A stretch of 64,000 nt of DNA from Geosiphon pyriformis uo1. Lineage: Eukaryota; Fungi; Glomeromycota. Where the stretch lies: the NCBI GenBank assembly GCA_016748015.1, contig JAAOMT010000086.1, positions 1 to 64,000 of the forward strand, given 5' to 3'. Shown here one piece after another: positions 820-63,585 of the stretch. The notes beneath the pieces are model-generated. The model did no database searches. It was not told where the DNA came from and worked only from the letters and a program-made list of their open reading frames with translations. How positions within the stretch are numbered: position 1 is the stretch's first letter; the number at the start of each line of letters is the position of its first letter. The translations under genes were made by a program, and so were the position numbers.

Positions 820-3800
820 TTATTTTTCATACACAAGTGGCATCATTGATCGCAATAGTGACTTAACATTTTCATGTTTAGCCAAATTTAAAGGATCAGG
901 CCATGCACACAAAAGCTGTTTCAAAATACTAATATCATCATCACTCAATTTATCCAGGCAACGATACAAAATCTTATCCAACCCTAATCCAGATAGACAA
1001 TATTGTGCCTTTGCTTTACCTGCTTTCTCTGCTTCAAGTCGTGTCTTCTTTTGTAACTTTGTGTTAAAGGCTGGAAAGCTCTCGATATAAAATGAATCCA
1101 AAGCTGGCTCTGGAGCACCCAGCTGAAGATATAGAGACAGGTAGGGATTTTGGTTTTCCTCTGTAGTTTTACCTTTATAGACAAACTCCCTCGAGAGTTT
1201 ACTTGTGGCTGATGAAGGCCAATGAGCATCGTAAACCTTACTCCAATTCTTGACTTGAATTAGAAAGTAAGACATTGAATCAACTGAAATAGGACTAGAT
1301 CCATCCCAATCCAACAAAACTGGAATTATCAAGTCAACTCCTGCTTGGTTACGTTTACATATCACAGCTGCGAAGCGAATGAATAGAGTTCTCAATTGTG
1401 TCTGGTTTGGGGTGTAAGTAACCGGAATGAAGTGTGTAAATGCAAGTAAACCATCAGCCAACTTTTGAGGGAAACTTTGAATATGTTCGTCATAGTTCTC
1501 CTGCCCGAAAAGAGATATCAAAAACTCCTTCACTCTAATTGGGCATGAAACAAACTCCTTCGAATATCCTAGATTTCCCAAGTGTGGTGATATATCTCTA
1601 TCTCTAGTAGCATGATCCCAAGCGATCATTAAAAGTAAACGGGCGACCAACTCTCCACGATAGCCAGGTTCTATATAACCAGTGTGTAATGCATCTAGTA
1701 GAAAGTGGAGTAGTTTTCTCAACACATTCTGGTCTTTCATAAGCAATGCTGCAGCCTCAGCAAGTATCGGTTCAGACGGATAGAATGCCAATAGTTTATG
1801 CCGATCCTCTGAAACGTGAACGCATATCCCCATGAATCCGGCAACTAATTCCGAAGCAATGCGAGACTCAGCTGTGACATCAAGTGAGATGCGAGAAGAT
1901 AAAATAGCGAGACCAGAAGCTAAAGTTGGTTTGTTAAGCCAATCATACACGGTTATACCTCCACCCAAGAGTTTTTGTCGTGCTAGTTTCATAAGTTCAT
2001 TGAGTTTGGCAGCACTCCTCAAAGCCGCACCCCACAAAGGTCGTCCTAGTGCGAACAGCTCTTCTAACTTTAATAGTTGTTCCGAGTCTGAGTTTGTTTG
2101 GCTAAATAAATCAAACGTACCCATAAAATAAAATGGCGGGAAAAGTTTATTCTTATTTAAGTATAATCGGGCCGAGGGATCCAAAGATGCTAATGGCGCA
2201 AAGTCAGCAAGGTTCGAAATGGTATCAGCGAATATGGCAAAAACGCCCGAAGGAAGACAACATAAAGCTCGCCGAGTGTGGATAAACGCTTTACTTTGTC
2301 CTAACGTCCCTAGTAAAGTCCGTGATTCATCAAACGCGAATACAAGTTTTGCCTTTTTGTTGACGATCTTCGATAAATGCGGTTCAACCTTTTTCCAAAC
2401 TTCTGCAATTTTATTTGCACAAGATGTTTCATCCATCAGATTTAACTCAATTGAGCCTTCTTTCCAGGATGTCACTAAGCTATTAGCTTTGTTTATTATT
2501 TTTTTTTCAAATTCGGGATCTCGCTGTTGATTCTTCCAATCTTCAATGCTTTTTCCGTCAAGAAATTCTATACAACTACAGAAAAATGCCGCTATGTAAA
2601 CCATTTCATTTTCCTCCTGATAAAGAAAGAAATTACGAACAGTTGGTGTCGCGAGTGGAACTCCTGAACTAGAATTCGCATGAAAGCATAAGTATATAAC
2701 AAAGCGGTCTTGAGCAAGCTGATGAAGAAGTCTAGACTTCCCAGTCCCAGATCCTTGGAAGAGAACACTGTATGGAGCATAATATATAAGATCCTGAGCA
2801 GTTTCCCACTCGTGTGCACAGTCGTCAATATGTTTTTCAAAAAGCTGCAAGACACCGAGATCATCTTTGTATTTTTGCTCAAATGCCTCCACCATTGATC
2901 CTGAATTTCATGCATTATAGTTAGAAATGAGAAAGGATAGTTAAAATATTAATTAGATTCAGTTACAAAAGAAGAAAGGTACTCACTTTTCAGAGATTCT
3001 GAGATAGAGGAGATGAAATCTCTGCCAGTTTCTAGAAAGAATTATAACTTAGTATTTATACTAGATGAAACTTAATACTAAAAAGGATCACTTCAAACTC
3101 AAAACACATGTTAATAAAAATAGATTGAACAAATAACCTACCAGTGGAAGACTTAGCTATAAGAAACAAATAAAGCACATCGGCGACAAGAAAAGGGAAG
3201 GAAGAAAGCAATAGTTAATTAACATCATAAGAGTATATCGAGCGTTCTCTCAAATAGATGAAAACGGGTATAGATGATAGATAACGGAGGTGAAGAGTAA
3301 AACTTAAGTTAAGAGCTAACATTAAGTCAAAAGGTTTTATTATTGAGTTAAATGCAAAGCAATTTTGGAAGTAAGAGGCAGAAGTAAATGAGCACAAATT
3401 AGTCAAATGAACGAAGGATAATGGTAATAGGGTGGATAAGAAAGTACTTTTTTATCCTACTCCATTTCCCAACGCCCGAGTTACCTGTCTTAGTTGCTTC
3501 CATCAACGTATTTTGTAATTTTTGCATTTGCATCTTCCACTCGTTCTTTTCTACTTTTAACTCGTTCTTGTCTACTTTTAGCTCCTTCACTTCTTCTTCT
3601 AGCTTTTCATTTTGCTTTTCATTTTGCTTTTCTAGCTTTTCTTTTTGCTTTTCTAGCTTTTCTTTTTGCTTTTCTAGCTCTTGCATATCTTCTATCCACC
3701 AATGCTTTTCGTTTTCGTTCTTGTACTTCTCCTGTCTCAAATTCTTCTTCAATTCAAGTAACTCATCTTCCTTTTCACGTAACTCATCTTCCTTTTCACG

Positions 3801-3953
3801 TAACTCATCTTCCTTCTCACCCTCCATAAACTTTTCTAGCTTCTCCTCCTTTTCCTTCAGCTTCTCCTCCTTTTCCTTCAGCTTCTCCTCGCATTTATCA
3901 TACTGGGTCTTAGCGTATTCTAATTCACGTTCGATTTTGTCCACACTAGCCAT
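820..3953 (-). CDS. Coiled-coil + P-loop NTPase + PD-(D/E)XK-like nuclease protein (Crinkler-type NTPase-REase). Spliced model 3953-3485, 3156-3142, 3031-2987, 2900-820; 869 aa
   Basis: Walker A GSGTGKS, Walker B FAFDES, RGELVARLLL, FTHF and REase-like GVDLIIPV...IQVKN in the 691-aa ORF. Three GT..AG introns (donors gtaact, gtaggt, gtgagt; last acceptor has a ctaac branch site and cag) keep phase 1 and join the E/K-rich ORF 3399..3953 in frame (2610 nt). CpG is retained and there are no stops. Confidence 0.8.
3541..3890 (-). repeat. In-frame 21-nt (heptad) tandem repeats in exon 1
   Basis: KLKEKEE, ELREKED, KLEKQKE and ELKVxKN units, each repeated 2-3 times at DNA level (e.g. aactcatcttccttttcacgt). 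Confidence 0.85.
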
Positions 3954-4072: not shown

Positions 4073-4092
4073 NNNNNNNNNNNNNNNNNNNN
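4073..4092. other. Assembly gap (20 N)
   Basis: Run of n. Confidence 1.
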
Positions 4093-4809: not shown

Positions 4810-7548
4810 GAATCAATTAAGTTATGACTAATTTTGGTTTAACAAGTGAGTACTAAGTGTATAATAGTCTGGATCAGAGTGAGGTTTTTTTTTTGCTTTA
4901 GAGAATATTTTATGACTCTTTGTTGTGTGAAGTTAAATGACAGAAAATTTTATGTAATTATTATATTAACACTAAGTTTATTGCTAAGACTAACAGGTTA
5001 GAGAATCAGAATAGAATAACTTTTTTTCTTGTGGTTGGCACTTTTATTAATAACACAATTTGGATTAAGAACAACCAAGCAGCCACTCAGTACATTTTGG
5101 ACATTGCTAATAGCTTTTTTAAGATTAATGATACTTTGATCAATAATAAAAAGACAATTACCATTTTTATTAACTAACAAATCTGTTTTATTGTTAATTA
5201 GTAGTTTGCTGATTTTGGTTGCCCAGAAGGAAGAGTCTCATAGATACTTTGGTATTTTTCTGTCTTTTAAAGGTCTGTCCAAACCAAGCATGGCAAAGAC
5301 TTATTTGAATATTAAGTTTTTTGTCAATTTGGTTTTAAAAAAGGCAATCTCAAACAAGCAGTTTTTTTATTTAGTCTTAGCTGTGCTTTAATTTATAATT
5401 AGTTATAAATTTCAGTTTAGTTTTATCTTTAAAAGTATATATTTTAAGTGGAATATGATAATTAGGAAGAGTTTAAAAATGAAAACTGACTTACCAAGAG
5501 ATTTTTCTAATAAAACTCTTTACTATTCTTTGTTGTATAACATAAAGTCTTTTGAACAATTGTAGACTGAATACAAAGTGGCTTCTGTATTGAGTTTCTC
5601 AAATACTGGTGGAATTTTTGGTAGGTTGTTTGATCATAGATCTTTGGACCTGCAAATTATGAGTTAATTTCTTATTTATCAGCTGTATTGATTCATAAAG
5701 CTATAAGCCAGTTTAGTAAACAATTTTTTAGCTGATATAGTTCAGATTTTTTTGAATTGTAATATGTTCTTGAACAATTTTATCTTGTTTGCTTTTTGTT
5801 TTTTTTGGTGGCATTCTAATATCTTTTGTTTTGGGTGATTTCATGTTTTTTAATGTTTCACATTTACTTAAAAGATTTGAAATTGCTTTTGTTGATCAAT
5901 TATATGACAGAAAGAGTTTAATCTTCAATTGGAAAAAATTCTGCTGTTAAAAGAAGCTTGACTCAAGGAATTTAATCTTTGGCTAGTTTAGTTTAGCATA
6001 TAATTTTTTGAGTTGGTCCTCTCTTTTTGTTAAATTATCTATTGTTTTTTACTATTTTTTGTCTATATGTAATTCTGATGGCATTTTTAAGATAAAAAAA
6101 AGTCTTGTTGCCTCTGGTTTAAGTATTATTAATGTTTATACAGATGAGTCTTTAAGGAATTTGAACACACATGAGATAAAATATGGAGCAGCTGCATATT
6201 TTTCTGATCTGAATTTAGGTGTTGGCATTAATGTTAATAAGTTGGTATCCTCTATATTGGCAGAATTGCAGGCAATTATTTTGGCTCTGAAATGTGTTCT
6301 TTTTGGCAGCTTGGTTTTAATGTATTTGAACAGTCAAGCTGCCCTAAATACTTATGCTACTGAGTTAGTTTTGGCTCTGCCTAACTATTATAATTGGTGT
6401 TAAATAAAGTAATAAAAAGTTGTAACATCTATTAAAAATAAGAGACTTAGTATTTCTTAGTGCAAAGTCAAAGAACATTCTGGTATCTTAGGCAATAAAC
6501 ATGCTAATAAGCTGGCTGGCTTGACTGCTGGTTCAGGTTTAATGCTTCTATTCTGGTTTGTGATAGATTTTTTAAGACTAGTGGAATGGTGGTATTTAAT
6601 AATACTCACTGTTTTGTTTGGAGTATTTATAGGGCTGTTTATTATGCATATTGGGAGATTAAATTTGGTTTTGGTGTTATTAATACAGGCTTTATTGGTA
6701 ATGTGGATTGGGTTTATATTGCTTTTGTTTGGTGTTTTAACTCTCATATGGCAGCTGGGTTTACAAATAAGTCTACAGCCAGTTTAAATTTATATTTTAT
6801 AAAAGTTGTGTACTACCATTTACCAATTGCTATATGGAAATAATTGTATAATAAAAAGTATTTAAGTGTATTGTGTATTTATAGTGGGGAGGTGAAAAAT
6901 TCTGATCATTTTTTTGTATGCCAAATGGACTCTGCAATTTGTGGTTTTCTGCTTACATCTTATCTGGATCAGTGACATGTTATGTCAGGTTAAGTCTGTT
7001 ATTGTCTTGAGTTTTGCAGATAATCTCTTTGTGCACTTCTAATGACAATTTGTATACTATTTTGTGTAAGAACTTTTTGTTTAAAGATTAGTTTTTGAAG
7101 ACAGTAACCATTTTTGATGATGTGGAATCAATTAGTAAGGGTGTTGTTAATTTTGTTTGGAGCATAGAAACTATTTATCATACTAATGTGTAATTAGTTA
7201 GAGCTAAATATAGAATGTTTATGGAAAAGAGAAGATTAATTTCGCATAATGTCTCAGTGTTTCTCATAGTTTATGGTCTGTTATTCTTATTTTCTGTTGG
7301 GATTGTTAGATTGCTTGGAATAGCAGAAACACTTGGTGTTTGTCTTGGTTTCCGTAAGCTCTGTGGTTTTTTTTTTGGTGTTGATAGTGTAGTGTCAGTT
7401 AAGATAAATTTATAATGTTGCTTTGATTGATCCAAGTGACTGGTTATATGTAGAAAGTGCATGATTTATGTCTAATTTAGATTACTTAATTTGATGTATT
7501 GTGTTAAATAGTATTTGAGTCTTACTTGTTAAATGTTAAAAAAAAAAA
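4810..7548 (+). mobile_element. 5'-truncated degenerate LINE (3' part of ORF2: RT, RNase H, C-terminal Zn-finger; poly-A tail)
   Basis: Decayed RT motifs (VMTNFGL..LDQSEVF; FINNTIW for FVDDTIW). RNase H YTDES/AELQAI/NSQAAL/KVKEHSG..GNKHANKLA at about 6130-6520. CxxC..DH..C relic at about 6870-6920. Poly-A at 7538-7548. Confidence 0.85.
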
Positions 7549-7801
7549 GTTAATAAATAGAACTATTTATGGTTTTATAAATAATATTTTTACACAAAAA
7601 TTTAAAGTTTTGGTTAAAAATATTAAAAACTTAGATAATAAAATAAATTTAATTTTAAAAATACTTTTAGATAATATTTGTATTAAATAAATTAAAAATA
7701 TAAAAACTAATTTTGTAAAAAAGATAAAAATTCTTTTAATATTAATATTAATTAAAAAACAAATAATAAAAGTAAGAGAAAAGTAAACAAATTTTTTTCT
7801 T

Positions 7802-10800
7802 GTCAATCCCCTGGCTATGATGAAAGCAAAAATTTTTTTTGAAAAAATAGCTTTTTTATTCTTTCTTTCTCTTTAGTTTATTCAAGCCATTTCTTTTATT
7901 AAACTAGTTGGCTCATTTGTTGATGGCTCTGGCTCGATTTTAGCTGGTCTGAGAACTCACTTAAATGCTAAAAAAAATCGTTTGAATAGTGTGTATTCTT
8001 GTGGTGCTTTTCATAAAAAACCAAAAAAGTTTGTCACAGATATAAATGTTATCAATTCATCTGTTGGTCCTTTGAGTCTCAAGGATGTGACTGGTACTGA
8101 TGAAAAGTCTGCTGTGTCTTGGAGTAGTGAAATGGATAGTGAAGCTAGTAGTATTAGTGGTTTGTTAGATGTAGAAAACATGAAAAATATGGTTACCAAA
8201 GAAACAAGTTATGTGAATTTTGACAATTCGGTAGTTGATGAAAACATAGATGACACTATGTTGCAAAAGACTTGCACTTAGATGTATGTGCTTAGCCAAC
8301 CTCTAAAAAGTCTAGTGTTTATTCATATGAGTGATGTTGATGACAACAATAACACTATATTGCTTTTATTATCTATGTTTATTGGTTCTAAGTGTTTTCT
8401 ATTGGCTAGATCATGTGTTTTAGAAAAACAAAGCTTTAATTTGACCAAATTTTTTGCTCTTAATATTAAGCTTTCTGCAGTACTAAGTAAAACTTCCAGT
8501 AAGAAATTGTTCAATGTGAAAAAATTTTTTTATCAAGTAGATGGTTTTGGAGAAGCTTCCACTCCCTCAAAATTTTCAGAGATTATCAAATTTTTTTTTA
8601 CTTTTGAATTAAGTCTGATTAAGACAAGGAAATTAGCTGTTTGTAAAAATATTCTGGTTAATAATGATGTAAGAAAGTAAACAGCCATACAGATCAGAAG
8701 GTAATTGTCAAAAAGATTCCAATTAATTTTCTTAAATTGGCAGTAGAATCAATTTTTTCTAAATTTGGTAAGAATGTGTCAATCAAGATACAATTGATTG
8801 GTTTATGGCAAAAGACTTTGGTGGAGTTTGAATCATCTGAAATGGCTAATTTGGTTGCTTCTAAATAGTTTGTTCTTATAAGAAAAAATTCTGTGCGTGT
8901 GACTTTGGCTATTGATAATAAGCAATCATGGATCTTAAAAGACCAATATTGGGCATTGTTGTATATATTACCAGTTGGAATTACTGCTTATGATCTTTCT
9001 GACTTGTTGAATTCTTATGATAAGAAAACATTTTTTATTGGTCACAATTCAAGTTTATATGTCTATAACAAATATATAGTAGTTTGTTTTAAGAATGAGA
9101 CATTCAAAGTGGCTGCTATTGGTTTTACTCCAGTTTTCAAGGGTGTGAATTTGCACTGAACTGGTCTATCTTTGGCTTGTTGTGCTCAGTGCAAACAATT
9201 TGGTCATGTTTCTGTTGATTGTGCAGTGGATGAAAATTGTGGTAGTCATAATAAGTAGGTAATTAATTCTTAGGACAGGGTTTACTTGGCCAATATTTAT
9301 AAGAAAAAGCAGGCACCCATCATTTGTCCAGTTTCTTTTGGTGGCAAAACTTGGGTCCAAGTTGCCAGTAGTTCTTCTTTTCTTGTGGTTCCTTTATTTT
9401 TTTCTGGTACTGGTTTGTTTTCTGGTGCTAAGTTTTTTTCTGGTGCTATATCTTTCTCATATATCTTTGCTTCTCTTGGCATCTCTGGTTTGTATGATCA
9501 TTTGGTGTCTTTAGAATGCTCTTTGGAACTTTTAGCTAATCAAGTTTCTAGTGTTATGAAAAAGTTGAGTTTTGTGGAACTGGTGCCTCTGTCATCTGTT
9601 TTTTAAGTACTCCCTTCAGCTGTTTCTGCACCTTTGACTTTGGGTTTGACTTTAAACATAGTCTTAAATAGTGTGTTAATGCCTTCTGTTTTCTCTTTTT
9701 CTGCTGTTGATAATAATGTTTTTGGTTTTAATTCAAGTAGCTCTAAGATTCTAACCACCAAAGTGAGTGGCTTAGAGTCAAAGTTGGTGTCTTTGGAAGC
9801 TTCAATCAGTTCAGTGCTGGTTAGATTGAATTGTTTGTGCTTTGTTTTGGGTGCTCCATTGCTTTCTTTATTCTAATAAGTAATCAGGTGTGCAAAATTG
9901 CCATGTACAATGTTAAAGAAATGAACAATCCTGCAAAACAGGACAACATTATTCATTGGCACAAAAACAAGAACAATTTAATTTCTATTTTTACAGAATC
10001 AAAGCTGAAAAAAAAAGTTTGTTCTTGGATTGTCAACAAATTTGATGGTATGCAAGTGTTTACTTCTGGTTTAGAATCTGGTTACCTGGGTGCTGGTGTT
10101 GTGATTATTATAAACTTTTTTTTAGCAAGACATGTGTACAAAGTTTTTAAAATACCTGGTTAGCTTCTATCTATTAAACTGCTTTTCAAAAACAAACTTT
10201 TAGTGTTAATTTTAGGGCTTTATGCTAAGACATCTTTGGCTGTTTGTTTTTCTCAAGCTAATAATATTAATTCCATGATTGCAAAAGCAGTCAATAAGGT
10301 TTTTTTTGTTGTTTTGAGTGGCAATTTCAATGAAGATGGTTCCACCAAGTGTGCCAGTTTCAAAAGATGCCTTAATTTGGATTTGGTAAACTCTTTGAGT
10401 GCAAGCTCATTGCAAAAGTGCTGACTTGAAACAATTCTTAAAGTGTAACTAAGACAATTGACTATGTGTTTATTTCTTCAAATTTGGTTAATACAGTAGT
10501 GGATTGCAGTATGGCTAATATTGAAAAATATTTTGATACTAATCACAGAGCTGTTTTTGTGTTCATAGGTTTGGGTGGTCTTCTAAATACATGGTTAACT
10601 TTTTTTCACAAGCAAGCTAATAGGGATCAGTGAAAGTTTGATTTCAAGAGTGCTGATGAAAATAAATAAGAATGTTTTTAAAATGTCACATTAGCCAATA
10701 CTGCATTGTTTTCAAATAAATTTGCTGTCTTAGTACAGTTATTGAATTTGGATGCTATATAAAATATAATTTGTAAGATAATGACTCATTTGACAAGTAA

Positions 10801-11376
10801 AATATTCAAAAAAAAATGGTTTAAGAACTTTAATAATGTCTTCATCAAAAATTTTTCAAGATTCTATAAGCTGGAACTTTTGGTTTTAAAAATTGTTAAG
10901 ACTTTTTATAAAGAGAGTAATATTAGTTTCACCTCCTTTATAAAATGATGGATTTCTTTGGACAATATTAAGACCTCAATTGTTTAGAATTTTATGGACT
11001 CTGGTGTAAACTCTGATTGTGTTTTTTTTGCTTTTTTTTGTGCAAGAAAATCTTACCATGCTTCCAAGTTTGTTGAGTTTCTAAGGGCTAATAAAGTGAA
11101 CATTAGGTCGGCTATAGACAAAAAAATGGAAAGTTTTGAGATAGATAAAGGTTATACTATCAGGAATGTATTGAAATGTTTTTTTCATAAAGTAGTGCTA
11201 AATCACTTATTTGTCAATGATGAGTTGATTCTGGAGCCTAATTTGGTTAAGTCTAAAGTGGATACTATTATAGAAAATTGGACTAGGAAGTGCCAAGTGG
11301 TGGCTGTTGTTCTTGATGATTAGTGTTATCAGTATCAACTTTTGGAGCATGTTTTTGATGGAGCTTTTTCTGGTGT
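7802..11376 (+). mobile_element. Degenerate LINE, 5' part (ORF1 with CCHC knuckle; ORF2 APE endonuclease), interrupted by LTR element A
   Basis: CAQCKQFGHVSVDC at 9181-9222. APE motifs KIAMYNVKEMN, TESKL, LSGNFNE (GDFN), TIDYVF and TNHRAV at about 9890-10560. Many transition-derived stops. Confidence 0.85.
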
Positions 11377-12250
11377 TGTTATGAGATAATTTTCTTGTTA
11401 TATTTAATTGCTGATATTTCATTTTAATTGCAATTAGTCTCTTGTGAGTTCCTCAATTCTATTTGTGTGATAATGTTACTGTTATACTAAAGGCTTTCTC
11501 TTTAATGTTGTGATGTAAGTTATTTCTCAATTTCTGATTGTTGTGTGTATTTATGTACTCCTTCTCAGAGGCTGAACTGAAATCTACCTACTGTTTGGGG
11601 TCTTCTCTGAGGCTATCCTTGCAATTGCCTGATGTGTTTTTTTAATCTAGAAACACGGAATATTAATGGCTTTTATCACTTTTTTTAATTCTCACAATAA
11701 AGCTTTTATCAATTAGTAACAACGTGAATAATCTTGATCAGAAATTATTCTTTCAAGGAATTCAACTGATGAATGATAGTTTCATTCAATAATTAACACA
11801 AGTGAGTTTCTTACTACTTTGGGGTTATTATAATTCAGTTTTAAATATTCTTTTTCATTTCTTTTTGATTTAAAAATTTTTTGGGATATTTAATTTAAAG
11901 ATACAATTTAAAGTAGAGTTTGTTGGATAAATTGGATCTATTGTTTGATAAGTTATGATTTTTATTACTTGATTGTCTTTTCTCAATATTAAAGCTACTG
12001 TATATATACATGTTTGTAGTTCTATGAGAAAACACATTATAATATTTTCTTTTTGATATTTCAACCTGGTGTTTGCTGCTATCATCAGTTGGTGTTGGCT
12101 GCTATTGTGAATTGGTGCTTGTCACTATTGTGAGATGGTGTTTGCTACTATGCTAATCATTACCTTTCTAAGATTATTACTGCACTATATTATGATTGAA
12201 TAGTTTATATTATTTTTATAATTTTTTTGCTAAATTCTTAAACCATAACA
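11377..12250 (-). repeat. 3' LTR of element A
   Basis: Colinear with 20162-21035; preceded on the minus strand by the PPT. Confidence 0.95.
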
Positions 12251-12266
12251 TTATCCCCTCTTTTCA
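12251..12266 (-). promoter_or_regulatory. Polypurine tract of element A
   Basis: Minus strand gaaaagaggggataa directly abutting the LTR TGTTA. Confidence 0.85.
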
Positions 12267-12988: not shown

Positions 12989-14368
12989 TTATCTTTTTGA
13001 ATAATGTTCAATTAAAACTATTAGTTCTAAATCTTGTGGAATTTGTTCTGGTAGAATTAAAGATAATTGTGTTCCAATTTTGAATGTCTTTATTATTATT
13101 ACTGATTTACTGTAATAGAATTTTAGCTGGTTACCATGTGCTGCTTTTCTTAATATTTTATCATTTAGTCTTAGCTTGTATGCTTTATTTCCAAGTATTT
13201 TGTGAATATAAAATAGTCTATCCCACTTGTGATCAAATTTTCCACTCCATTGTTTTTCCATTTTTGTACAATGCAACAATACTTTATCTCTAATTTTGTA
13301 GCTAATTATATTATCTGGTAACTGGTTATTATGTCTCACTTTTTGTTGTTCTTGTGATTGTTCAATATTTTGTGCTGCTTTTCTTCTTTTGTTTTCTAAA
13401 ATTTCTATTAATTTGTATGTTCTTCTAAGTAGTATTTCCTGGAATGTTGTTTCAGTGATAGTGTTACTTGGATAAATTGGAATAGTAAGTTCAACTGGTA
13501 ATATGGCTTTTCTTCTATAAACTAGTTCAAATGGTCTGAATTGTATAGTATCTTGTTTTACTGTTTTATATGCTAGTAGTACTGCTGGTATAAACAAATT
13601 CCATTCTTTTTTATGTTTATTACTAATTTTTGCCAGTGATTCACATAATTTGTGATTAAATCTTTCAACTAATCCATTTGTTTGTGGGTGGTATGGTGAT
13701 GACAGTGGTTGCTTGATTCCAAATTTTTGGCTAAGTTCTTTTAAGGTGCTATTTACGAAGTATGTGCCTTGATCTGATAGCAATTTTTGTAGACATCCAT
13801 GCTGGCAAATTAAGTCTTTATGTACGAATTGAGCTATGGAAATAGCATCAGCTGTTTTAATAGCTCTAACTTCTGGCCATTTGGTAAGATAGTCCAAAGC
13901 TATTGCAATATAATAGTTGTTTTTTGTTGTTATAAGTAAGGGTCCAACTAAATCAATTCCAATTCTGTCAAATGGCTGTCCAACTTTTATTGGTCTTAAT
14001 AATTCTGTTGTTTTTGCTCCTTCTTTTCATTGGTATGGGTCACAATTTTTTATGTATTAAATTATGTCTGAACTTATTTTTGGCCAATAGTAATGGCTAG
14101 TTGCATATTAAATGGTTGTTGTTTTTCTAAAGTGGCCTAAATAAATATCTGAGTGCATGTTAAATAAGATAGTTTCTTTTTTATCCATGGTTATAACTCT
14201 TAATGGATTATCTGGATTTTGTTGATTCTAGTAATAAAGTATGTGATTTTGAATGAAATCATGTTTTGCTAATTTTTGGAGCTTAATTAGCTTTTTTACT
14301 AGCATTTTTTTGTCTATTTGTAGTGTTTTCAAGCATTGGTTAAGGTTTTTGTAAAGATGGTTATTCAT
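12989..14368 (-). pseudogene. Stand-alone integrase ORF of element A
   Basis: ATG at 14368, in frame with ORF 12989..13897. Motifs: GHF, FDRIGIDLVGPL, DYLTKWPE, LLSDQGTYF, YHPQTNGLVERFN, GPY/F-like C-terminus. A few premature stops. Confidence 0.85.
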
Positions 14369-14397: not shown

Positions 14398-17300
14398 CTA
14401 TGTGTGTTTTATTCTTGACAAATAGTCAGCATTAGCATTTTTGGTATCTTCTTTGTATTTGATAATATAATTGTATGGTACTAATATTTGTGACCATCTG
14501 GTGTATTTTTTTTTTAGCACTTTCTTGTTATTTAATCAAACCAGACCTTTATGATCTGTGATAATTTCAAAGGGTTGGTACTGTAAATATGTGTTAAAGT
14601 GAACACAACTCCAGACTACTGGTAAGCATTCAAGTTTGTGTGCTGCATAGTTTTGTTTTGTCATACTGAGACTTCTGCTGGTATAAACAATTACATGCTC
14701 TCTTCTATTATCATCTTTTTGTGACAAAATGGCTCCAAGTCCAGTTCCAAAGGCATCTGTGGCCAAAATAAATTTCTTATTAAAATTCGAATAGATTATT
14801 ATTAGTGATTCAATAAGCTTTTGTCTAAGGTACTCAAAAGCTTTTTGTTGTGCTTTAGTCTATTCAAATTTCACATTTTTGGATAGTAGGTAATTAAAGG
14901 GTTTGGCAATGTTTGAAAAGTTTTCTACAAAGCAGTGGTAGTAAGATGCAAGTCCTAAAAAGCTTCTAACTTCTGAAACGTTTTGAGATACTAGAAAATT
15001 TTTCACTTTGTTTATTTTTAATAAATCTGGTTTTATTCCATCTTTTCCAACTACGTGTCCTAAAAATGCTAGCTTATTATTCCCAAAGAAACATTTTTTT
15101 AAATTAAGTTTAAGTCCAGTATATTTTAATCTCTCAAAAACTTGTTGTAAATATTGGAGATGATCTGCGAATTTTGGTGAAAAAACATTTGTATTGTCCA
15201 AGTAGACAACAATGAATTGCCACAGAATTCTGGAGTAAATTACATCCATTAGTCTTTGGAATATTGCAGGAGCATTTGTCAATTCAAATGGCATTACATT
15301 GAACTTATAATTGCTATTTTGTGTTTTGAATGCTGTTTTATGCCTGTTTTTTGGGTCCATTTCTACTTGCCAGTACCCACTGGTCAAGTTCAGTATAGAA
15401 AACCATTTTGCTTCTCCAAAAATGTTGAAAATTTTGTTAATTAATAGTATTGGGTATGAGTCTTTAGTTGTTTTGCTGTTTAGTTTGCAATAGTCGATGT
15501 AAAATCTAATTTTTCCGTTCTTTTTCCTTACTAAAACAACTGGTAAGAACCATGGGCTTATTGATAGTTGAATTATTCTTTTTTTCAACATGCTTTGGAC
15601 TTTTTCTCTGATAAAATTATGCTCCATTGATGGGACACGGTAAGCCCATTGTTTTTCAGATCTGGTGTTTCCAGTGGGGATTTGATGTTGAATGAAGTTG
15701 GTTCTTCCAAATTTGCCATTTTATGAAAATATATCAGAGTATCTTAAAATTAATGCTTTTAATTGTCACTGTTGGTCAGAATCCATTGTTCTAATGTTTA
15801 ATTTGGCCAATTCTTCTGGCATAAATTGATAGCATTCTAATGATTGTTGCCAATTTATTGAAGTGAGTTCACAGTAGAGGGCAATTTCTGGGAAATTTAG
15901 AATTTTTTGTGGTATTGATGTGTTTTCCAGCTCTATTTCAAGGTATCCAATGATAGTATCTTCCAGAATATAGATGAGTTCTTCTGTGGTGTTTGCGATA
16001 GAAATTTTTATCTATTGAGCTTTATCAGCTGAAATAAAAAGGTTAGTAAGTCCTATGAAAAACTGTTGACAAGTTTTTGGGTAGGGCTCAAATATTAGGT
16101 TTTTTTTTTTAATTGTTCTTTTTATTCTTATTTCTGATTTTCCATATGGTAGGAGCATAATGAACTGTTCAGTTTTAATTACTTTGCCTTTTTTCTCTAT
16201 TTTTTCAGTGAAATTCACTTCAATTCCTTTTTTTGTCGATCCGAAACCAAAAGTTCCTCTCGTTGTTTGTAACAATTCCTCATGATTTTCCACTGGCATG
16301 AATTTCCCAATTTTTACCAATGGTAGGAAAATTGCTTGTGCAATCTTTTCCTTAGATTCAATGGTATAAGGCTTTTCTGAATTGTTCTGTAGCAAAACCA
16401 TCAAATTTCCAGTGTATTCAGAATCAATTACTTCTCCTTGAATGCTTATTCCTTTTTTTGCGAAACTTGATCACAACACTATTTGAACCATTATTCCTGG
16501 CAAAATTTTAACCACTATTTTTAGGTTGATTTTGGTAATGCTCCTGGATAGTAACGTTGTGGATTGGTCTTCCAGATAACATAGATCGAATCCGGCATCA
16601 GTTGGATGGGCTTTTTCAGGTATTATTCCTAAGTGACTATTGTTAAAGTATCAGATGTCAATCACCTGTTCTAGGTTGGTATAGGCTACAAATTTTTCTG
16701 ACTCGGAACTGTCAGGTGAGTCTTGTTGATTTATTGATTGATTTTGAGACTGCTGATTCTCAATTTCCAATTTTTTTCTAAGTTCTTTTCATTTTGACAC
16801 TCTTTACAGCACTGATTTTGGCATAGGATAAAACAGTTTTCGCAGAGGTAAGTGTTGATTTAGACAAGGTATTGTTCTTGTTCTTGTCGAGTGAGGCATA
16901 GTTGTTGGTAGTAGTCCTGAAATTCATTCACTGGGTCGAACATGTTGTAGCTGACAACTTTGTCAGCTACTTTGGCTGACTCTTTCCAACTTTGTATTTT
17001 TTTGGCAGTTTTTCCTCTTACTTTGGCTTGTGCGGTGTTATACAACTCATTCTTGTCGTGTGAATAGTGCTGTAATCTTTTTAATGCTCTGTTGAATGCT
17101 GCTTCAAATGGCATTTCTCCTCTTATCTAGTTACAGATAAGGATTGTGTATTGGCAAGTTATATCACACATTCTTCCTCTGCCTGATATGTCATTCCAGT
17201 TGCACCCTCTTGGTAATAGTTCTCTATAAGCGAGGCACGGTTCCTCATCCCATTTTCCATGTCTTTCTGGATAACCATATTTTTTTTTTTTACAATAGTT

Positions 17301-20090
17301 GCAATAGTAGTGGGTGAAGTTTCTTGGGTCTTTGTCTGGTGCACTGCACGCAGTCATAGATGAGAGTTTCTTCTTGCAAACTGAACATTCTAGCTTTGGT
17401 TTGCGTTGCTGGTGGTTTCTTCATAAACTTACCTGGTTCCATTTGGATCTTTGTTTGCTAGTCCATGTTAGTACAGCTAGTAGTCCTGTTCTTTGGTCAT
17501 CAATCCAAGAGAGCTGATAGGTTTTGATGACTGGTAGTACTGAATTTTTTTCAAATTCAAAGGTAGGTCTTTGGTTGGTGCTGGGTTTTTGGAAGTGGCT
17601 ACAGGTGGCCAGAATTCTGGCCTGGTGGCCATTATAATTGATCAAAAGCTCTTGAGTAGTCTAGTCTAGAATGGCATTGGCTTTTGTTAACCAGTCATTC
17701 CCTATTAATGCTTGATATTATATAGTGTTTATTACTAATACTTTTGTAGGTATTACTATGTCATTAACTTCAAAAGGAAATGAGTTGATTTCACCATGAG
17801 ACAGTTTTGTACTTCCATTGGCTGTTATAATTTGAGACATTACAGCACAATCAACTTTAAAACCCAGTTGGTTTACTAGTTGAAGCATTATGATGCTTCT
17901 AGTGGATCCACTATCTAAGATAAGTTTGATTGGAGTATTTTTTATAGTGGCTTCCGTATACATAGCAATAATTGGGCATTTTTTGTCCAATGCTGCTCCA
18001 CTAAACATAGCCTCATTTTCCTCTAATTCAAAAGAAAAAATAGCTACAAGACTGTTATCTTTGGTGGCAACTGCTGGTGGTATTGTTTGGCTCAATTTGT
18101 TAAAGGAATTTTCGGTTCTGTTTATGTTTCTACTGTTAGTGTTTTTGATGATCAGATTTTCCAGTATATTAAGGTAAGTTTGTTGATAATTTTGGTAGTT
18201 TGAATTGGTTTGCTAACTGGTTCCGGCGCGGTTTGAATTTCTCTGAACCAATGTATTCTGGTTCTATATAGGCTGATTTTGGGGCTCAGGATGCCAATTC
18301 AGGTTGGCTATCATGGGCTGTTGCTGGTAAGTTCCTTGATTTTGATATGTGGTGAGATATTGGTGTGATAGTGGCGTGTACTGGTTTCTAAACATTTGGG
18401 ATGACACATAATAATTATTTTTACGTGCTTTCTGCATTATTTGCATTCAATATTGACTAATCAAATGTCCTATGCATTTGCAAAAATGGCAGGCACGTGT
18501 TTCTGTTCTGAATTTTTGGCACGATGAGCAATTATTTCAACTGTTGCTGACTTTCTGGCTGCATCTTTGGGGTGGTTGGTATGTATTTCTTCTTGGATCC
18601 AGGATAAAGTAACTTTCTATTTTCTTAGAGAGTTCTTTCCATAATTGCATTACTCTTTTCTCTAACATTTTTGTCTTATTTTTCTTCATTACTATGTTAA
18701 CTATTTGACTATGATTAGCTTCTTTCTCAGCCAATTCAAAAGCTTTGGTGAGCATTATGGCTTCTGGTAAGAAATTAGGATGGGCAGAGCATACTCTTCC
18801 TAAAATGCTGCTTTTTAATTCTTTAATAAACTGATTTAAAACCTAAGGATCAGTGTAGTATTCTTGTTCAATCACTTTAATCTGATGGTGAATTTGATTG
18901 AATCGAGCAAGATATTGGGTGACAGTTTCACCAGTACCTTGCTTGATAGTATTGAATTCGTTTTGTAGTTGAATTATGGTGTTTGGGTCACTAAAATACT
19001 CCAGGAGTGCATTTTTAAATTCAGTGAAGCTTGTGGGTTTTGTTTCCAGACTTTGATACCATGAGTCGGCTGTGTCTTTCAAAAAGAAAGGTAATGTTTG
19101 AATTGCTCTTTGGTCATTTCAGTTATTTGCCTAAATGGCTTTTTTTGCTTCTCTGAGCCATGTGTACATGTCCATTTCTTCTTTTTCTCCTGAGAAATCT
19201 GTTAGTTTTGCAATATATAATGTGGCCATTTCGTCGCTATTTTCTACTAGTAGACTTATAAGTCTAAGAGGAGGTGGGATAATATTTCCTTGAGCATTCC
19301 TAAAAATGGCTTTTCTTATATTTGGTTTTTTCACTTGATCATGAGTTTCTTGGTTTCTGGACTGGCTGCTTGTTCCAGTGACTGGTCTCTTTTTTGGATT
19401 CCAATTCAGACTCCTCTTCACGGTTTTCAAATCCCATTCCAAATTTTGGCTGAAAAAAAGAGTTTTGGAATAGCAATGAATATTTTTCTGTAATTGGTAT
19501 GTTTCTCTAGTTATATTGTTTAATTTTATCAGTATAACTAAGAGTTCTTGGCATTTGTGAAGTTGATGTTGATGATAATGCAGCTCCTAATAGAATTTGT
19601 ATCTTATTTTCTGGTGAAAAATGGTATGATTTATTTTCTGGTGAATAAATACATTGTTTCTTTATTGATTGAGTAACAGTTTTCTTTGGTGTTTGAGCAG
19701 GTGTTCATAGTTTTTGCTGGTTACTTTCCTGATTAGTGTTTAAATTTTTTTTGGTTTTGTTGGTGCATTCCCTAGTGTTTCCTGTGAATATTGGAAAATT
19801 TTTGTTGGCGTATTGCTCAATTTTTCAATGGATTTTGATAATAGTTGTGACTATTACTTCTACTTCCTTTGTATTATGATAATTCTCTATACAATCCAAG
19901 TTTTGCATGTGTGGTTCTTCTTTCTTTTCTATATGATAATTTATTCTGGCGTTAATATAATAAGTGAGGGCAGATTCTACTGGACAACACTTTTCTGGTA
20001 ATTTAAGATCACTTTGATGTTGTGTGTAAATAGCATGGCAGAATTCAAGAACAGTAAGATTAGGAGTTTTTGTCGCCACTTTTGTCTTTT
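14398..20090 (-). pseudogene. Gag-PR-Cys-rich-dUTPase-RT-RNase H polyprotein of element A
   Basis: Capsid-like region 19240-18700, CCHC about 18500, LILDSGS about 17915, dUTPase 16660-16235, RT ORF 14860..15627, RNase H ORF 14536..14766 (ATDA..GLGAILSQ); ends NADYLSRIKHT* at 14398. Confidence 0.85.
16235..16660 (-). pseudogene. dUTPase domain in element A
   Basis: Motifs DAGFDL, SSFAKKG, VIDSEYTG, KIAQAIF and RGTFGFGST. Confidence 0.9.
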
Positions 20091-20161: not shown

Positions 20162-21035
20162 TGTTACAGAATAATTTTCTTGTTATATTTAATTGCTAAT
20201 ATCTCATTTTAATTGCAATTAGTCTCTTGTGAGTTCCTCAATTCTATTTGTGTGATAATGTTACTGTTATACTGAAGGCTTTCTCTTTAATGTTGTGATG
20301 TAAGTTATTTCTCAATTCCTAATTGTTGTGTGTGTTTATGTACTCCTTCTCAGAAGCTGAACTGAAATCTACCCACTGTTTGGGGTCTTCTCTGAAGCTA
20401 TCCTTGTAATTGCCTAATGTGTTTCTCTAATCTAGAAACACGAAATATTAATGGCCTTTATCACTTTTCTTAATTTTCACAATAAAGCTTTTATCAATTA
20501 GTAACAACATGAATAATCTTGATTAGAGATTATTCTTCCAAGAAATTCAACTGATGAATGATAGTTTTATTCAATAATTAACACAAGTGAGTTTTTTACT
20601 ACTTTGGGGTTGTGATAATTCAGTTTTAAATATTCTTTTTCAATTTTTTTTAATTTAAAAGTTTCTTGAGATATTTAATTTAAAGGTACAATTTAAAGTG
20701 GAGTTTGTTGGATAAATTGGATCTATTGCTTGATAAGTTATGATTTTTATTATTTGATTGTCTTTTCTCAATATTAAAACTATTATATATATACATGTTT
20801 GTAGTTTTATAAAAAAACACATTGTAATACTTTCTTTTTGATATTTCAACCTGGTGTTTGCTGCTATCACCAGTTGGTGTTGGCTGCTATTGTGAACTGG
20901 TGCTTGCCACTATCACGAGATAGTGTTTGCTACTATGTTAATCATTATCTTTCTAAGATTATTACTGCACTATATTATGATTGAATAGTTTATATTATTT
21001 TTATGATTCTTTTGCTAAATTCTTAAACCATAACA
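20162..21035 (-). repeat. 5' LTR of element A
   Basis: Colinear with 11377-12250, same length. Confidence 0.95.
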
Positions 21036-21039
21036 GTGT

Positions 21040-24900: not shown

Positions 24901-27900
24901 GCTTTCTGTTAATCTTTCTTCTACAAATATGGTATGTATTTAGATAATAAGTAATGGAGTGGTTTTTGAGAATTTTTTGACAAATTGGTGATAGTATCAT
25001 GCTAATTCTAAAAATTTTCATAATTTACACAGATTGATTGAGGCTGGAAAGTCTTTAACTTTTTGGATTTTGTCTGAATCAGACTTAACTCTGTCTTTTC
25101 TGATCACTTGTTCTAAGAATTTCAGTTTGGTTTTTTTGAAAAAGCATTTGTTGGGATTAAGTTTTAATTCAGCATCTCAAAAGTGCTCAAACACTTGTTA
25201 AAGGTAAAGCAAATAGTCATTAAATGTTTCCAAGAACATGTTAGTATCATCCAGATAAACTACGACTGATTTCCAAAGAATTCCTTTGTATACTACATCC
25301 ATAAGACATTGAAAAGTGGCAGAAGCATTACAAAGTCCAAAAAGCATCACATTGAACTCAAAATTGCTGTCTCAAATTGTAAACACTGTTTTTTTTTTGT
25401 CTTTGAAGTCCATTTCAACTTGCCAATAACTACTTGCTAAATCTAATGATAAGAACTATTTCTTTTTTCTTAAATTGTCCAGAATTTCTTGGATAAGAGA
25501 AGTGAAATAACTATCTTTTCAAATGATGCTATTTAATTTTCAGTAATCTATACAGAATTGCACTTTTCTATTTTTCTTGGTAACCAAGACTATTGGAGAA
25601 GACTAAGAGCTTAATAATTCTTTGATTAAAGATTATTAAGCATTTGTTGTACTTTTTGCTTAATTAAATTATCACCAAATAGAGGTACTTGGTAAGTTTA
25701 TTGCTTAATAGGTCAAGTATTTCCTGTGTTGATTTGGTGTTTTACGATGTCTGTACATTGTAACTCATTTTTGCTGACAAAAACATTGGCATACTGATTC
25801 AGAAGAACTTTGAGTTGTATTTGTTGCAGAGTACTTAAGTTTCCTAAATTTAATTTATTGATCTCTTCTGGTGTGAACAAGTAACTTTCTTTTGGCAAAT
25901 TCCATACTTGTAAGATAATGTCACAGAACAAAAACAATTGCATGAAATCTAAAATGGGCTGAGATTTTTCTGAATTCTGAATATTTGGAGATATAAAACT
26001 AATAAGAGTTTCCTCCAGAATTTCTATAACATTTTTAGTCAGATTGTAAATGAGAATTTTAAAGTGTTTATAAGCCTTTGCGAATAAGTATAAGTTAGCA
26101 ATATTGGCTAAAAAACAGATTTTGGGATCTGCTTTAAATAACAGAACTTGACTTTGGATTTTTCAGTTTACTTTAAGAATGTATTGTCTGTATGGAGGAA
26201 TGAAAATAATGGTATTAATGTAAATAAATTCTATTTTGTTACTGTCTTTCTCTGTGAAATTAACTGGTATATTTTTTTTTCTACTTGATTTGAATCTATT
26301 GATTTTTCTGGTGATAAAACTTAACTTTTTGTAAGTAGTAACCAAAATTAATTGTGGTATTTTAATTAGGAACAGAAAGATAGCTTGGACTATTTTTTTA
26401 TGTAATTCTATTTTGTAAGATTTATCTGAATTGTTCTGTAACATTGTAATAATGTTTCCCATGTAACTGGCATCAATAATTCCTCTTTTTACATTAATTC
26501 TCTTTTTTGCTAGACTGGATTAAGAGACAACTTGTACCATTGTACTAACTAGAATTTCTAGTGGTATTTTGAGATCTACTTTTACTAGGGAGTGTGAGGC
26601 TATAACTATGGGTAATTGTCCTGAGTATTATAAGTCAAAGCCAGCATTGGTCTTATGTGTTCTTTCAGAGCAAATTCTTTTATTATTATTGTTATACCAT
26701 TTCAATTCTATTTCTTTGGAAAGATTAGGATATGCGAGATACTGTTCTGTTTTGGCAGCCTTAGATGGTTTTTGAAATGACATGTCTTTGGTAATTAATT
26801 CCTCTTTTTTCTTAGGATCAGGTAGTTTAATGATTGGAAACAGTATTCTTGGAGACAGATTGAACATGAAATTACATTTATTACAGTACTGGAAATAACA
26901 AAGAATTAAACAGTGATTGCACAGTTTAGTATTCAAGTCAGCTAATTTTTGCTCTTGTTCTTCTTAAGTTAAGGCCAATTCTTAGTATTGATCCTGAAAT
27001 ATGTTCAGATTATTAGTGAAAAAATCTTCAGTGATATAATCAGGTCCCTTATATTTAGGTACAAATAAATTTTTTTTGATTTTTTGTATTTCATTGAATG
27101 TGGTTTCTTCAGTCTTGGCACTTGCTATTCTCCTTATTTCATGCTCATTATGTAAATAGTCATCTAATTTATTTAGTGCTTATCACCAGATGGCCTTAAT
27201 TGGAATTCTTTTTTATACCTAATCATTGATTAAGATGGTGTATTGTCATGCTTTATTACATATTTTTTCTCTGCCAAGCACATTATTTTAGAACTTTTTA
27301 TTTAGCAAGATTCTGCCATAGGCAAGACATAGTGTATTGTTCTATTTGTTTTGTTATTTCAGTCTTCTAAATCTTTCCAATACACATAGTCTACAATAAT
27401 ATTTTGTCACAGTTGGCCATTTTTCATTATTTCTTATACATACACTCATAAAGGTTAACTTCTTTCCACAATTGACACAAATTAGCTTTGGAGGTTGATA
27501 AAATAGATTTTGTTAACTTAAAGCTAAATAACCTAATAGTAATGCTAAAGGTTCTTCTTCAGCTCTTTTTTTTTTTTTCCAGATTGGTAGTAGTGATAAC
27601 TCCATTGGGAAATCATCTGCCCAAGAAACTTGGTATGTCTTTATTGTTAGTGATAAAGTTGTTTCTTTGAATTTTATTAGTGGTGGCTCTAAACTCTGGA
27701 CTTTAAAGTGTCTACATATAGTCAGAACTTGGGCATGTTATCTATTATAAGTAATCTGCAGTTTCTGTATATTCCAATCAAGGATAGCATAGGCTTTGGC
27801 TAACCAGTTATTTCTAATAAAGGCTTAATATTGTGTTGCTTTCATGACCAGAACTTTAGTAGAAATTTGGATTCCATTAATCTTAAAGAAGAAATTATCA

Positions 27901-29982
27901 ATTTCTTCAATGGAAGTCTTGGTATTGTTATCTGTGGTGATGATTCAGGCAGTTGCTGTACAGTCTACTCATTAACTTAATTAGTCTATAAGTTGTTTTG
28001 TGATTATACTATCTGCTGATTTGTTATTGAGGATTAATTTAATGTCTATGTTTCTAACTTTAATATCAATGTATAGTGTCATTATGGATTTATTCTGGTT
28101 AATGGTGGTTCTACTAAAAAGACTAGAAGTATTCAGATTATTTACATTAAAAGAGAAGATAGTGGCAAAGATAGTGTCTTCTGTAATAATGGTAAGTAGG
28201 ATGGTATTGTGGTTTTGCTTTTAATTCGAAGAATTGGGAATTTTTTCTATTTCTTTTCTTTCTAAAGGTATAGAGCTATTAAAATTCTGGATTTCATTAA
28301 AACCAAGATAGAAGGCTTGATTCGGATATCCAGATAGTATAGGCCAAGATGGGACATAACCATAATTGATGAATCATGCTGGTATGCTATTTGTTTGCAT
28401 CTGATTGTTGCTGGAGTTCCTCCATCCTTGGTTGTAATCTATTGCATGAGGTTTAAGTTGGTTATAATTGGAGTTTTGATAATGAGATACTGCTTAAGCT
28501 ATTGGCTGTAATGGCTAATAATAGTTTTAAGGTGGTTGCTAGTTATATGTAAATGGTTGTGAGTATAAAAGCAGTAGATATTGGGGTCTTCTGGTCTGAG
28601 AATATTTTGGTTGTTGATATTGATTTTTTCAATTCTGGTTTACTAATTTCTGTTGACAATCCTGGACAATATGTCTAGGTTTCTGGCAATAATAACAATT
28701 ATAGAGATCAGTTTTCCAAGGTTGTTAGTGGTCCTATTGCTGTGAATATCTGCTGCTGTTATAATTTTTTCTCCTTTGGGATGGTTGATAGGTTTCTGTT
28801 GTACCAGCTAAGAATCCCTCAATTTTTTGAGTTAATTTTTTACTTAATTGAGTTATTTTTGCATCCATGTTGAAGATTTTGTTGATGGCTAAGTTAATAG
28901 CTTTAGTATGACTTGAAATTGTGCATCAGGGTGACAGCATCTTGCAGATTTGTCAGATGTTGGAGTTTTACAGATCTTAGAATATTACTTCTTAACCCCT
29001 TGATGAATTGTTTAAGAACTTGCATTATGGTATAGTAGTCCTTTTCAATGGTCTGTATTTGATAAAAAATTTGATTAAATTATTCAAGATAAGTGGTTAC
29101 TGCTTCATGATTTTTTTGTTTTATGATACTGAACTGATTTTGTAATCTGATTAGAGTATTAGAATTACAGAAGTATCATAAAAAGGCAAGCTTGAAAGTG
29201 GCAAAGTCAGTTGGCTTTTCTGTCAGACTTTGATACCACAAGTTTGCAGTTTCTGTTAGAAAAAATGGCAGCACTTAGATAGCTCTGTTATTATTCTAAT
29301 TATTGGTGGTAATTGCTTTCTCAGCTTCTGCAATCCACAAATATGTATTGTTTTCTTTACTAGAAAATTTTTCCAATTTCGTGGTATCTTAGTAAGTCAT
29401 GATCTGGTTAATAGGTAGAAGGTTTAAGAAAATTGATGTTTATATGTTAAAGAGTTTTTCTGGTGCTAGTTCTGATTGTTTTCCTTTGTCATTAGAACCA
29501 ATAGGTTAAGAAATAGCTGTTTTTTTTATAGAAAAAGTTGCTGATCTTGCTAAGGTTTGTGCTGTTAGTAATTCTTAAATTGACATATTTTCATCAGTTT
29601 TATGAATTTTAGGAATCAGATTTCTAAACAACAATCTGTATTTTTCTAGGAATTTGGTCCAACTGTGGTGCTCTCAAGGGTGTGGATTTCCAAGAGTTTG
29701 TGGTGTTTCTAACTGGATTTCTGGGGGTGGGTTGAATACAATTCTACTTTGGGATGTCTGATAGTATAATAGAGTTGTTAGGGAAAGAATTTTCAGTTTT
29801 TTGTTAACTGTAGACTTGGCTTGTTCCCTTCTAGTTGTTAGATTAAATCTGAACTTGTCTTTTCTAGAGTCTAATTTTCTGGTTTGGTTTACTTAAGAAA
29901 AACATTTTTCCATATAATTTTTAATGTCCATATCAACTATGCGAAAAGTTTCAGTAATGACTCATGTTATGGTGTTTGTTAA
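21960..29982 (-). mobile_element. LTR retrotransposon B (same architecture), 5' end lost at the LTR of C
   Basis: Partial 3' LTR ending at 22255 with adjacent PPT-like tract; ORF3 about 22960-22270; IN 24453-23087; RH about 24830-24463; RT (VVYLDDTN) about 25700-24900; dUTPase (NAGFDL) about 26700-26270; Cys-rich about 27480-26850; PR about 28030; gag about 29400-28650. Confidence 0.85.
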
Positions 29983-62990: not shown

Positions 62991-63585
62991 TTGACTTGAT
63001 TACTCACATAATTAATAATAATTTAAAACTTGGAACAATTCGAAACTCTGTTTTAATTATTTATACAATTGATAATAATTTAGAACTTGGAACAATTTGA
63101 AACTCTGACTTAATTACTTATACAATCAATGATAATTTGGAATTTGGAACAATTTGAAACTCTAATTTAATTATTCACAAGATTAGTAATAATTTAAAAC
63201 TTGGAACAATTCAAAACTTTGATTACTTATATAATTAATAATAATTTAGAACTTGAAACAATTTAAAACTTTGACTTGATTATTCATAAAATTAGTAATA
63301 ATTTAAAATTTAAGACAATTTGAAACTTCGACTTAATTACTTATATAATTAATAATAATTTAAAACTAGAGACAATTTGAAATTCTAACTTAATTACTTA
63401 TATAATTAATGATAATTTAGAACTTGAGACAATTTAAAATTTTAACTTAATTATTCACAAGATCAATAATAATTTAAAACTTAGGACAATTTAAAACTCT
63501 AACTTGATTACTTACACAATTAATGATAATTTAAAACTTGAGACAATTTGAAACTTTAACTTGATTACTTACACAATTAATAATT
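62991..63585. repeat. 57-bp tandem repeat, about 10.5 units
   Basis: Consensus about GATAATTTGGAACTTGGAACAATTCGAAACTCTGACTTGATTACTCACACAATCAAT, period 57, one unit with a 5-nt deletion. Confidence 0.9.

Follow-up and report, generated by a model that had tools for sequence, protein, structure and literature searches.

Transposon decay by C-to-T change in every sequence context in Geosiphon pyriformis resembles RIP in outcome, not in the hallmarks tested

Organization of the locus

The window analysed here is a 64,000-nucleotide stretch of contig JAAOMT010000086.1 from Geosiphon pyriformis, an early-branching fungus of the Glomeromycotina, and its features are listed in Table 1. Beyond position ~5000 it consists mostly of decayed retroelements. 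Element A belongs to the Ty3/Gypsy class, as indicated by the TG...CA ends of its long terminal repeats (LTRs), the target-site duplication, the polypurine tract and the protease–reverse transcriptase (RT)–integrase order of its coding stretches. Its dUTPase sits between the protease and the RT. Three open reading frames (ORFs; 26163–26519, 35393–35875, and 51473–51784) resemble this dUTPase by eye, and a dUTPase is also present in some intact Pol relatives. A decayed plus-strand element at 5987–11323, in which CpG is almost absent, has by eye the look of a non-LTR (LINE-type) element, and the two of its ORFs that were scanned gave no Pfam match. A broken protein-kinase and Sel1-repeat gene at 59205–61391 is CpG-depleted as the transposons are.

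In the gene at the left end of the window, the N-terminal exon encodes a repetitive coiled coil, and a P-loop-like motif, GSGTGKS, is present. The long ORF of this gene gave no Pfam match, and one relative showed a weak match to AAA_22; the gene may be similar to the Crinkler-type NTPase-nuclease genes. Contigs from runs X2 and X3 (kind of run guessed) join across 2899–2986 and 3032–3481, the first of which has minus-strand intron-like ends, and this suggests a small exon at 2986–3032. The gene may be mobile, judging from its near-identical copies, several of which are partial. A 20-N assembly gap (4073–4092) lies between this CpG-rich gene and the transposon block, and their adjacency is therefore uncertain.

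Table 1 Features of the window.
Feature	Position	Strand	Remarks
CpG-retaining multicopy gene (control)	820–3953	−	Versus dominant sister copy over 878–3141: 7 transitions (5 at CpG), 4 transversions
Target-site duplication GTGT, 4 bp	11373–11376 (partner 21036–21039)		Flanks the LTRs
3′ LTR, Ty3/Gypsy element A	11377–12250	−	874 bp; T/A letter at 28 of 57 transition differences
Purine-rich tract adjoining 3′ LTR, likely polypurine tract	12251–12265	−	
Integrase stretch, element A	12989–14026	−	Pfam rve, E = 1e-9; stops around it
Reverse-transcriptase stretch, element A	14860–15720	−	Pfam RVT_1, E = 5e-27
dUTPase stretch, element A	16012–16470	−	Pfam dUTPase, E = 7e-15
Aspartic-protease stretch, element A	17718–18212	−	Query giving 45 G. 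pyriformis relatives for the genome-wide protein spectrum
5′ LTR, element A	20162–21035	−	874 bp; T/A letter at 29 of 57 transition differences
Older LTR-like direct repeat	29982–30959 (partner 39756–40702)		103 transitions, 18 transversions, 8 gap openings; no clear target duplication
Element coding region, repeated at 56147–57688	49551–51591		Transitions:transversions 182:51 and 86:16
57-bp tandem array	62928–63669		Neighbouring units: 34 transitions, 4 transversions (6 cut units, two double)

Divergence of the LTR pair of element A

The target-site duplication fits a single insertion, so the two LTRs of element A were likely identical at the start. They align without gaps and differ at 59 sites, comprising 57 transitions and two transversions (11829 and 11858). 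The first-pass annotation had reported LTRs of equal length with about 21 differences in the first ~320 bp, all transitions, and a couple of transversions elsewhere. The full comparison confirmed this account, with exactly 21 transitions and no transversion in that segment. The annotation had also placed the changes on both copies and in all four CpN contexts. The T/A letter is indeed shared out almost equally between the copies (Table 1), and with C/G taken as the ancestral letter, changes were found at 6/10 CpG, 11/39 CpC, 23/101 CpT, and 17/117 CpA sites, CpA being the context with the lowest rate. An excess confined to CpG, named beforehand as an observation that would speak against a general cytosine mutator, was not seen, since 51 of the 57 transitions lie outside CpG. 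Those in CpT or CpC (34 of 57) cannot be derived from CpG decay.

The transition/transversion ratio (Ti/Tv) of the pair is 28.5 (95% range 8–235). With a Ti/Tv of 2, 59 differences would include two or fewer transversions with a probability of 2e-8, and with a Ti/Tv of 5 with a probability of 0.002; these values apply to a pair chosen as extreme. Variant places in contigs covering the left LTR gave transition:transversion counts of 84:4 in run X1, 60:4 in X2, and 46:5 in X3, and none in X4.

Direction of change

The LTR pair alone gives no direction, and two outgroups were therefore used, namely variants of the element family and homologues of Pol. The variants listed (40 of 96) include 16 sites at which the LTRs differ. 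The family majority is C/G at 14 of them; of the remaining two, one has C as the minority and the other has T in the family. At no fewer than 10 sites among the same listed variants, both LTRs carry T/A against a C/G family majority, which suggests that partly mutated elements could still transpose.

For the second outgroup, the window was aligned with 118 intact Pol homologues; of the 2318 codons covered, 634 were kept, the filter being conservation in at least 90% of at least 20 homologues; P0042 and P0043 were excluded from the vote set. At these conserved positions, the changes were C>T at 52/216, G>A at 106/339, T>C at 3/297, and A>G at 3/311 sites, with 19 transversions in 1163 sites. 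The pooled direction is C:G>T:A at 158/555 sites versus the reverse at 6/608 (P = 3e-48). Where the ancestral neighbours are known, 43/148 CpC and 19/61 CpA sites were changed. In-frame stops aligned by at least 10 homologues numbered 63, of which 41 have a clear majority residue. The first-pass annotation had traced the stops to Trp, Gln, and Arg codons and had noted the decay of Gly codons. Both claims stood, as 36 of these 41 stops replace Trp, Arg, or Gln and 36 of 37 changed codons at conserved Gly need G>A alone. The rates at sites that are surely non-CpG were 0.15 in element A and 0.27–0.42 in the other element regions.

Other repeats and the genome-wide extent

The other repeats of the window share the transition excess, at lower ratios than LTR pair A (Table 1). 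Divergent pol-to-pol pairs (Ti/Tv 1.1–1.5) were excluded because they are saturated and shaped by selection. All 45 matches to the protease stretch of element A belong to G. pyriformis; 24 passed a 70% identity filter and 21 failed. Compared with the column majorities, the 24 relatives carry 81 amino-acid changes of the C>T/G>A type, 13 that are ambiguous with a transversion, 6 of the transversion type, 4 of the T>C type, 1 ambiguous T>C, and 2 of a double C>T type; under equal rates, 11% of changes would be C>T-type and 65% transversion-type. Many of them (S>F, P>S, S>N, T>I, and G>D/E) are impossible as CpG events. Since these relatives are predicted open frames, stops are uncounted in this spectrum. 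The C:G>T:A bias is thus spread over the genome in the family of element A.

A scan of 80 metagenome loci returned nearly exclusively distant elements from other organisms. A long-range direct repeat was found in 12 of the 80, five of these being identical contig-end overlaps, and no mycorrhizal fungus could be named as a source. One locus (L068:3649–9138) contains a plant-like Gypsy element within a PP2C-like gene (label by eye); the LTRs of this element are 430 bp long and are separated by 11 transitions and 1 transversion.

The CpG-retaining gene as a control

The observed/expected ratio of CpG is 0.119 at 5000–64000 and 0.745 in the gene at 820–3953, in line with the earlier statement that CpG is nearly absent and that the gene keeps it. 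The GC3 of the gene is 0.34, and the non-coding DNA flanking it has a GC content of 8–10%. The gene is multicopy and not single-copy: its 695-aa ORF (820–2907) has five further G. pyriformis copies with 90–99% protein identity, and these have kept open frames.

The control comparison used the 11 variants in 878–3141 from the 40 of 217 listed, and its reference was the collapsed contigs of the dominant copy, which is not a true ancestor. One of the five CpG transitions is of ambiguous direction, and the other two transitions are non-CpG C>T changes. One of the four transversions (at 1096) was confirmed in another copy, P0005; some of the others could be assembly errors. With the caveat that this is one gene with 11 differences, its transition:transversion count of 7:4 differs from the 57:2 of the LTRs (P = 0.005), and the non-CpG counts are 2:4 versus 51:2 (P = 0.0005). 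The summaries of run X1 gave 127:69 for the gene versus 84:4 for the LTR. If the gene mutated at the ratio of the repeats (24), at least 4 transversions among its 6 non-CpG changes would have a probability of 0.002. The synonymous differences are 2 transversions and no non-CpG C>T at 182 opportunities (P = 0.005 at a ratio of 24 and 0.02 at a ratio of 10). The repeat spectrum, which the first-pass annotation had proposed looking for at synonymous sites as a challenge to its claim, was therefore not seen in this small multicopy-gene control.

The window copy of the gene carries 6 C>T changes in 2.26 kb, led by CpG; about 3–4% of the CpG cytosines of this young copy have changed versus 0.3% of its other cytosines. 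P0008, an old decayed paralogue, has a spectrum of the repeat type, with 28 of 36 changes compatible with C>T. These observations suggest, from a small control, an ordinary spectrum in the active gene lineage and C>T decay once a copy is silenced, and the C>T process is probably not genome-wide.

Context and distribution of the changes

The rates at CHG (57/142) and CHH (276/675) sites are equal, which gives no support to CHG-specific methylation. A 5′ pyrimidine roughly doubles the rate, both in pol (70/219 versus 26/144, P = 0.003) and in the LTRs (34/130 versus 17/124, P = 0.018). The dipyrimidine lean is 1.6–2.5-fold, with no strict targeting. Relative to a first-order model, the trinucleotides of 5000–58500 show depletion of CCT/AGG (0.56), CCC (0.75), and CAT/ATG (0.76) and enrichment of CCA/TGG (1.47).

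Spacing tests showed no clustering of the changes (P = 0.34 and 0.43). Eight runs tests for strand coordination gave z values from −2.0 to 1.3, with one clustered at −2.0, although many superimposed rounds could mask such runs. The split between strands was 18:10 in one LTR and 11:18 in the other, which is borderline (P = 0.065). A single clock in which C>T runs 24-fold faster per site than transversions fits three of the repeat pairs; for pair A it predicts 7.6 transversions against the 2 observed (P = 0.019). This misfit, together with the opposite strand skew of the LTRs, hints at bursts.

Interpretation

Geosiphon transposons lose C to T in every context, far faster than they undergo other changes. 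The claim of the first-pass annotation that a cytosine mutator targets repeats stood in most of its parts: the change is C:G>T:A, it extends beyond CpG, it affects repeats genome-wide, and the active gene lineage is seemingly spared. Its framing as RIP was not supported. The process resembles RIP in outcome and not in those hallmarks that were tested.

We consider it reasonably likely, on the combined analysis, that CG and non-CG methylation of silenced repeats by DNMT1/DIM-2-like enzymes, followed by gradual deamination, would account for the spectrum. A new insertion would be packed into heterochromatin, where a DNMT1-type enzyme would methylate CG and a DIM-2-type enzyme CH. The T:G mismatches arising from 5-methylcytosine (5mC) would escape uracil repair and be fixed at replication in vegetative growth, and CpG would be lost first and then the other contexts, at ~24 times the per-site transversion rate. 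The deamination could be spontaneous or enzyme-assisted, as has been proposed for Zymoseptoria Dim2. A gradual action is indicated by the equal load on both LTRs and the lack of runs and clusters in the tests above. Methylation predicts that the C>T excess is limited to silenced DNA and that non-CG contexts take part; both were observed, the former with a small control. In Rhizophagus irregularis, 32.5–49.5% of cytosines were found methylated by LC-MS (PMC8298701) and mCG sites make up 13.8% of all cytosines (PMC8647823), from which we infer that much of its 5mC is non-CG. The clade of arbuscular mycorrhizal fungi (AMF) was reported to have DNMT1, DNMT5, DIM-2, and RID (PMC8298701). Transposable elements of Phycomyces carry CG and CHH methylation (PMC11258239), and DIM2 and DNMT1 are present in this fungus (PMC11258239, PMC7862722). 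DIM-2 methylates every context in heterochromatin (PMC11315935), covering all CpN with a preference for CpT (PMC13297926, Table 1). On the other hand, a 2026 review describes Glomeromycota as 6mA-dominated and RID as restricted to ascomycetes (PMC13297926), in conflict with PMC8298701. The 5′-pyrimidine lean is no known property of DIM-2 in the literature examined and counts against methylation followed by deamination. The clock misfit of pair A and the borderline strand split likewise hint against its gradual form.

Because of these burst-leaning results, true RIP or a close variant was kept as a rival, in which homology pairing would trigger RID-dependent C>T bursts during cryptic sexual or parasexual development; the context would be relaxed, and many rounds would have evened out the pattern. 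The changes in repeats are nearly all C:G>T:A transitions, which characterize RIP, and the Ti/Tv of pair A is high. RIP requires RID and a premeiotic stage, and RID is reported in the AMF clade (PMC8298701); the shortage of transversions under a constant clock, the opposite strand skew, and the one clustered runs test also point this way. CpA, however, is the least-affected context in pair A and is equal to CpC in pol, none of 127 index windows was positive for RIP, and neither clustering nor strand-coordinated runs were found. The five near-identical gene copies keep their CpGs and open frames, although they might postdate the last sexual cycle and the old copy is heavily mutated, and the window copy has received a low, CpG-led dose. 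Moreover, the internal pol of element A (12/81 non-CpG sites) is mutated no less than its closely linked LTRs (about 10% each), and RIP-like signatures were confined to ascomycetes among the 1,239 genomes of a survey whose main text does not name Geosiphon (PMC12543289). We regard true RIP as unlikely. The narrower proposition that Geosiphon has a context-relaxed, RID-driven, homology-triggered RIP that is invisible to CpA-based indices is similarly doubtful; if true, it would place RIP in Glomeromycotina and provide genomic evidence for a cryptic sexual stage in the AMF lineage. Damage to unmethylated cytosines, by UV dipyrimidine photoproducts or by hydrolytic deamination in long-lived spores, could give a similar outcome if silent chromatin is poorly repaired while transcribed genes are repaired. 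This fits the higher rate at dipyrimidine than at RCA cytosines (46/199 versus 5/55, P = 0.02; in pol, 91/334 versus 5/29), the photosynthetic cyanobacteria that G. pyriformis hosts, and the reported loss of Rev1 in the Glomeromycotina ancestor (bioRxiv 10.1101/2025.09.02.673565), a loss expected to bias changes towards C>T rather than C>G. However, no CC>TT tandem change occurred at 39 CC/GG sites of pair A, Pro and Gly codons contain double changes about as often as independence predicts, CpA is still heavily affected in pol, and the loss of CpG requires methylation anyway. Damage of this kind is, in our judgement, an unlikely source of the spectrum.

A C>T bias acting on the whole genome, for instance through weak uracil excision, with genes spared only in appearance through selection, would agree with the low GC content of the non-coding DNA flanking the gene and with the spectrum of the tandem array. 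The synonymous sites of the gene, its changes taken over all sites, its retained CpG, and its GC3 argue against it, and we consider it quite improbable. The least probable source, which we regard as very improbable, is element replication (RT error, dUTP misincorporation, or a cDNA deaminase) or CpG decay alone. The elements do encode a dUTPase, sense-strand G>A slightly exceeds C>T (106/335 versus 52/210, P = 0.10), and CpG is the fastest context. Nevertheless, the divergence between the two LTRs of a single insertion arose after integration and involves both strands, the tandem array and the old host-type gene copy share the bias, and most LTR transitions are non-CpG or even underivable from CpG; the LTR pair has thus already largely refuted this alternative.

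An all-context C>T process would be a permanent route for killing transposons in a genome of which 41% is LTR elements. Conserved pol sites have lost about a quarter of their cytosines even though none of the 127 index windows is positive. Common RIP indices rest on CpA loss, so a context-free C>T process may be overlooked in these fungi. Pair A has a K2P distance of 0.073, while its transversions, with Ti/Tv taken as 2, give ~0.007, and LTR-based ages, which the first-pass annotation had expected to be inflated, would be inflated about tenfold (range 3–87-fold) for this pair. LTR dating is thereby distorted, and a CpG-only correction would be insufficient to remove the inflation. The process also gives a direct test of DIM-2 or RID action in a lineage of disputed sexuality.

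Comparison with known systems

A spectrum of C>T in all contexts was not found reported for Geosiphon in our literature search; the genome paper, the metagenome paper, Bewick 2019, and supplements (the species tables of PMC12543289) were outside it and may address the point. The excerpts of PMC13443276, PMC12210899, and PMC12344493 added nothing on G. pyriformis. Index-based claims of RIP outside Dikarya have been made, with caveats, for entomophthoralean fungi (PMC10515909); for Mucoromycotina and Gigaspora margarita, RIP signatures are reported as undetected (PMC8647823 citing Venice 2020). In three other genera of mycorrhizal fungi, a study of mutation spectra stresses AT-rich double transversions and not all-context C>T (PMC13387360).

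Dim2 causes a more than tenfold increase in mitotic mutation in Zymoseptoria tritici, where >95% of the changes are C>T and >98% of those lie at CpA (PMC8016269). The Geosiphon process is similar in that it is confined to repeats and consists of C>T, and the Dim2 process is 5mC-linked and needs no sexual cycle (PMC8016269). It differs in context: CpG is spared in Z. tritici, while in Geosiphon CpG comes first, CpA is unfavoured in both LTR pair A and pol, and there is a mild 5′-pyrimidine lean. With the RIP of Neurospora and other Pezizomycotina (PMC12543289), it shares near-pure C:G>T:A change in repeats, stop-riddled transposon ORFs, and AT enrichment. Unlike RIP, it has no CpA preference, index signal, bursts, or strand runs, and near-identical gene duplicates are tolerated. 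Also unlike RIP genomes, that of G. pyriformis consists of LTR elements to 41.2% (PMC11952901).

The deamination of 5mC in plant LTR retrotransposons, which occurs in the CG, CHG, and CHH contexts, is alike in being a gradual transition excess in all contexts, as in the 11:1 pair of the metagenome locus L068, while the enzymes of plants are others. The Ti/Tv of plant LTRs is about 2–4, below the 28 found here. Clutterbuck reportedly described in 2017 a CpG-limited hypermutation of transposons in basidiomycetes and some early-diverging fungi. Severe CpG depletion of repeats is common to that process and to Geosiphon, although most changes in Geosiphon are non-CpG. Membership in RIP is unsupported, two of its defining features having been tested and found lacking, and the process behaves in the manner of methylation-linked mutation of repeats.
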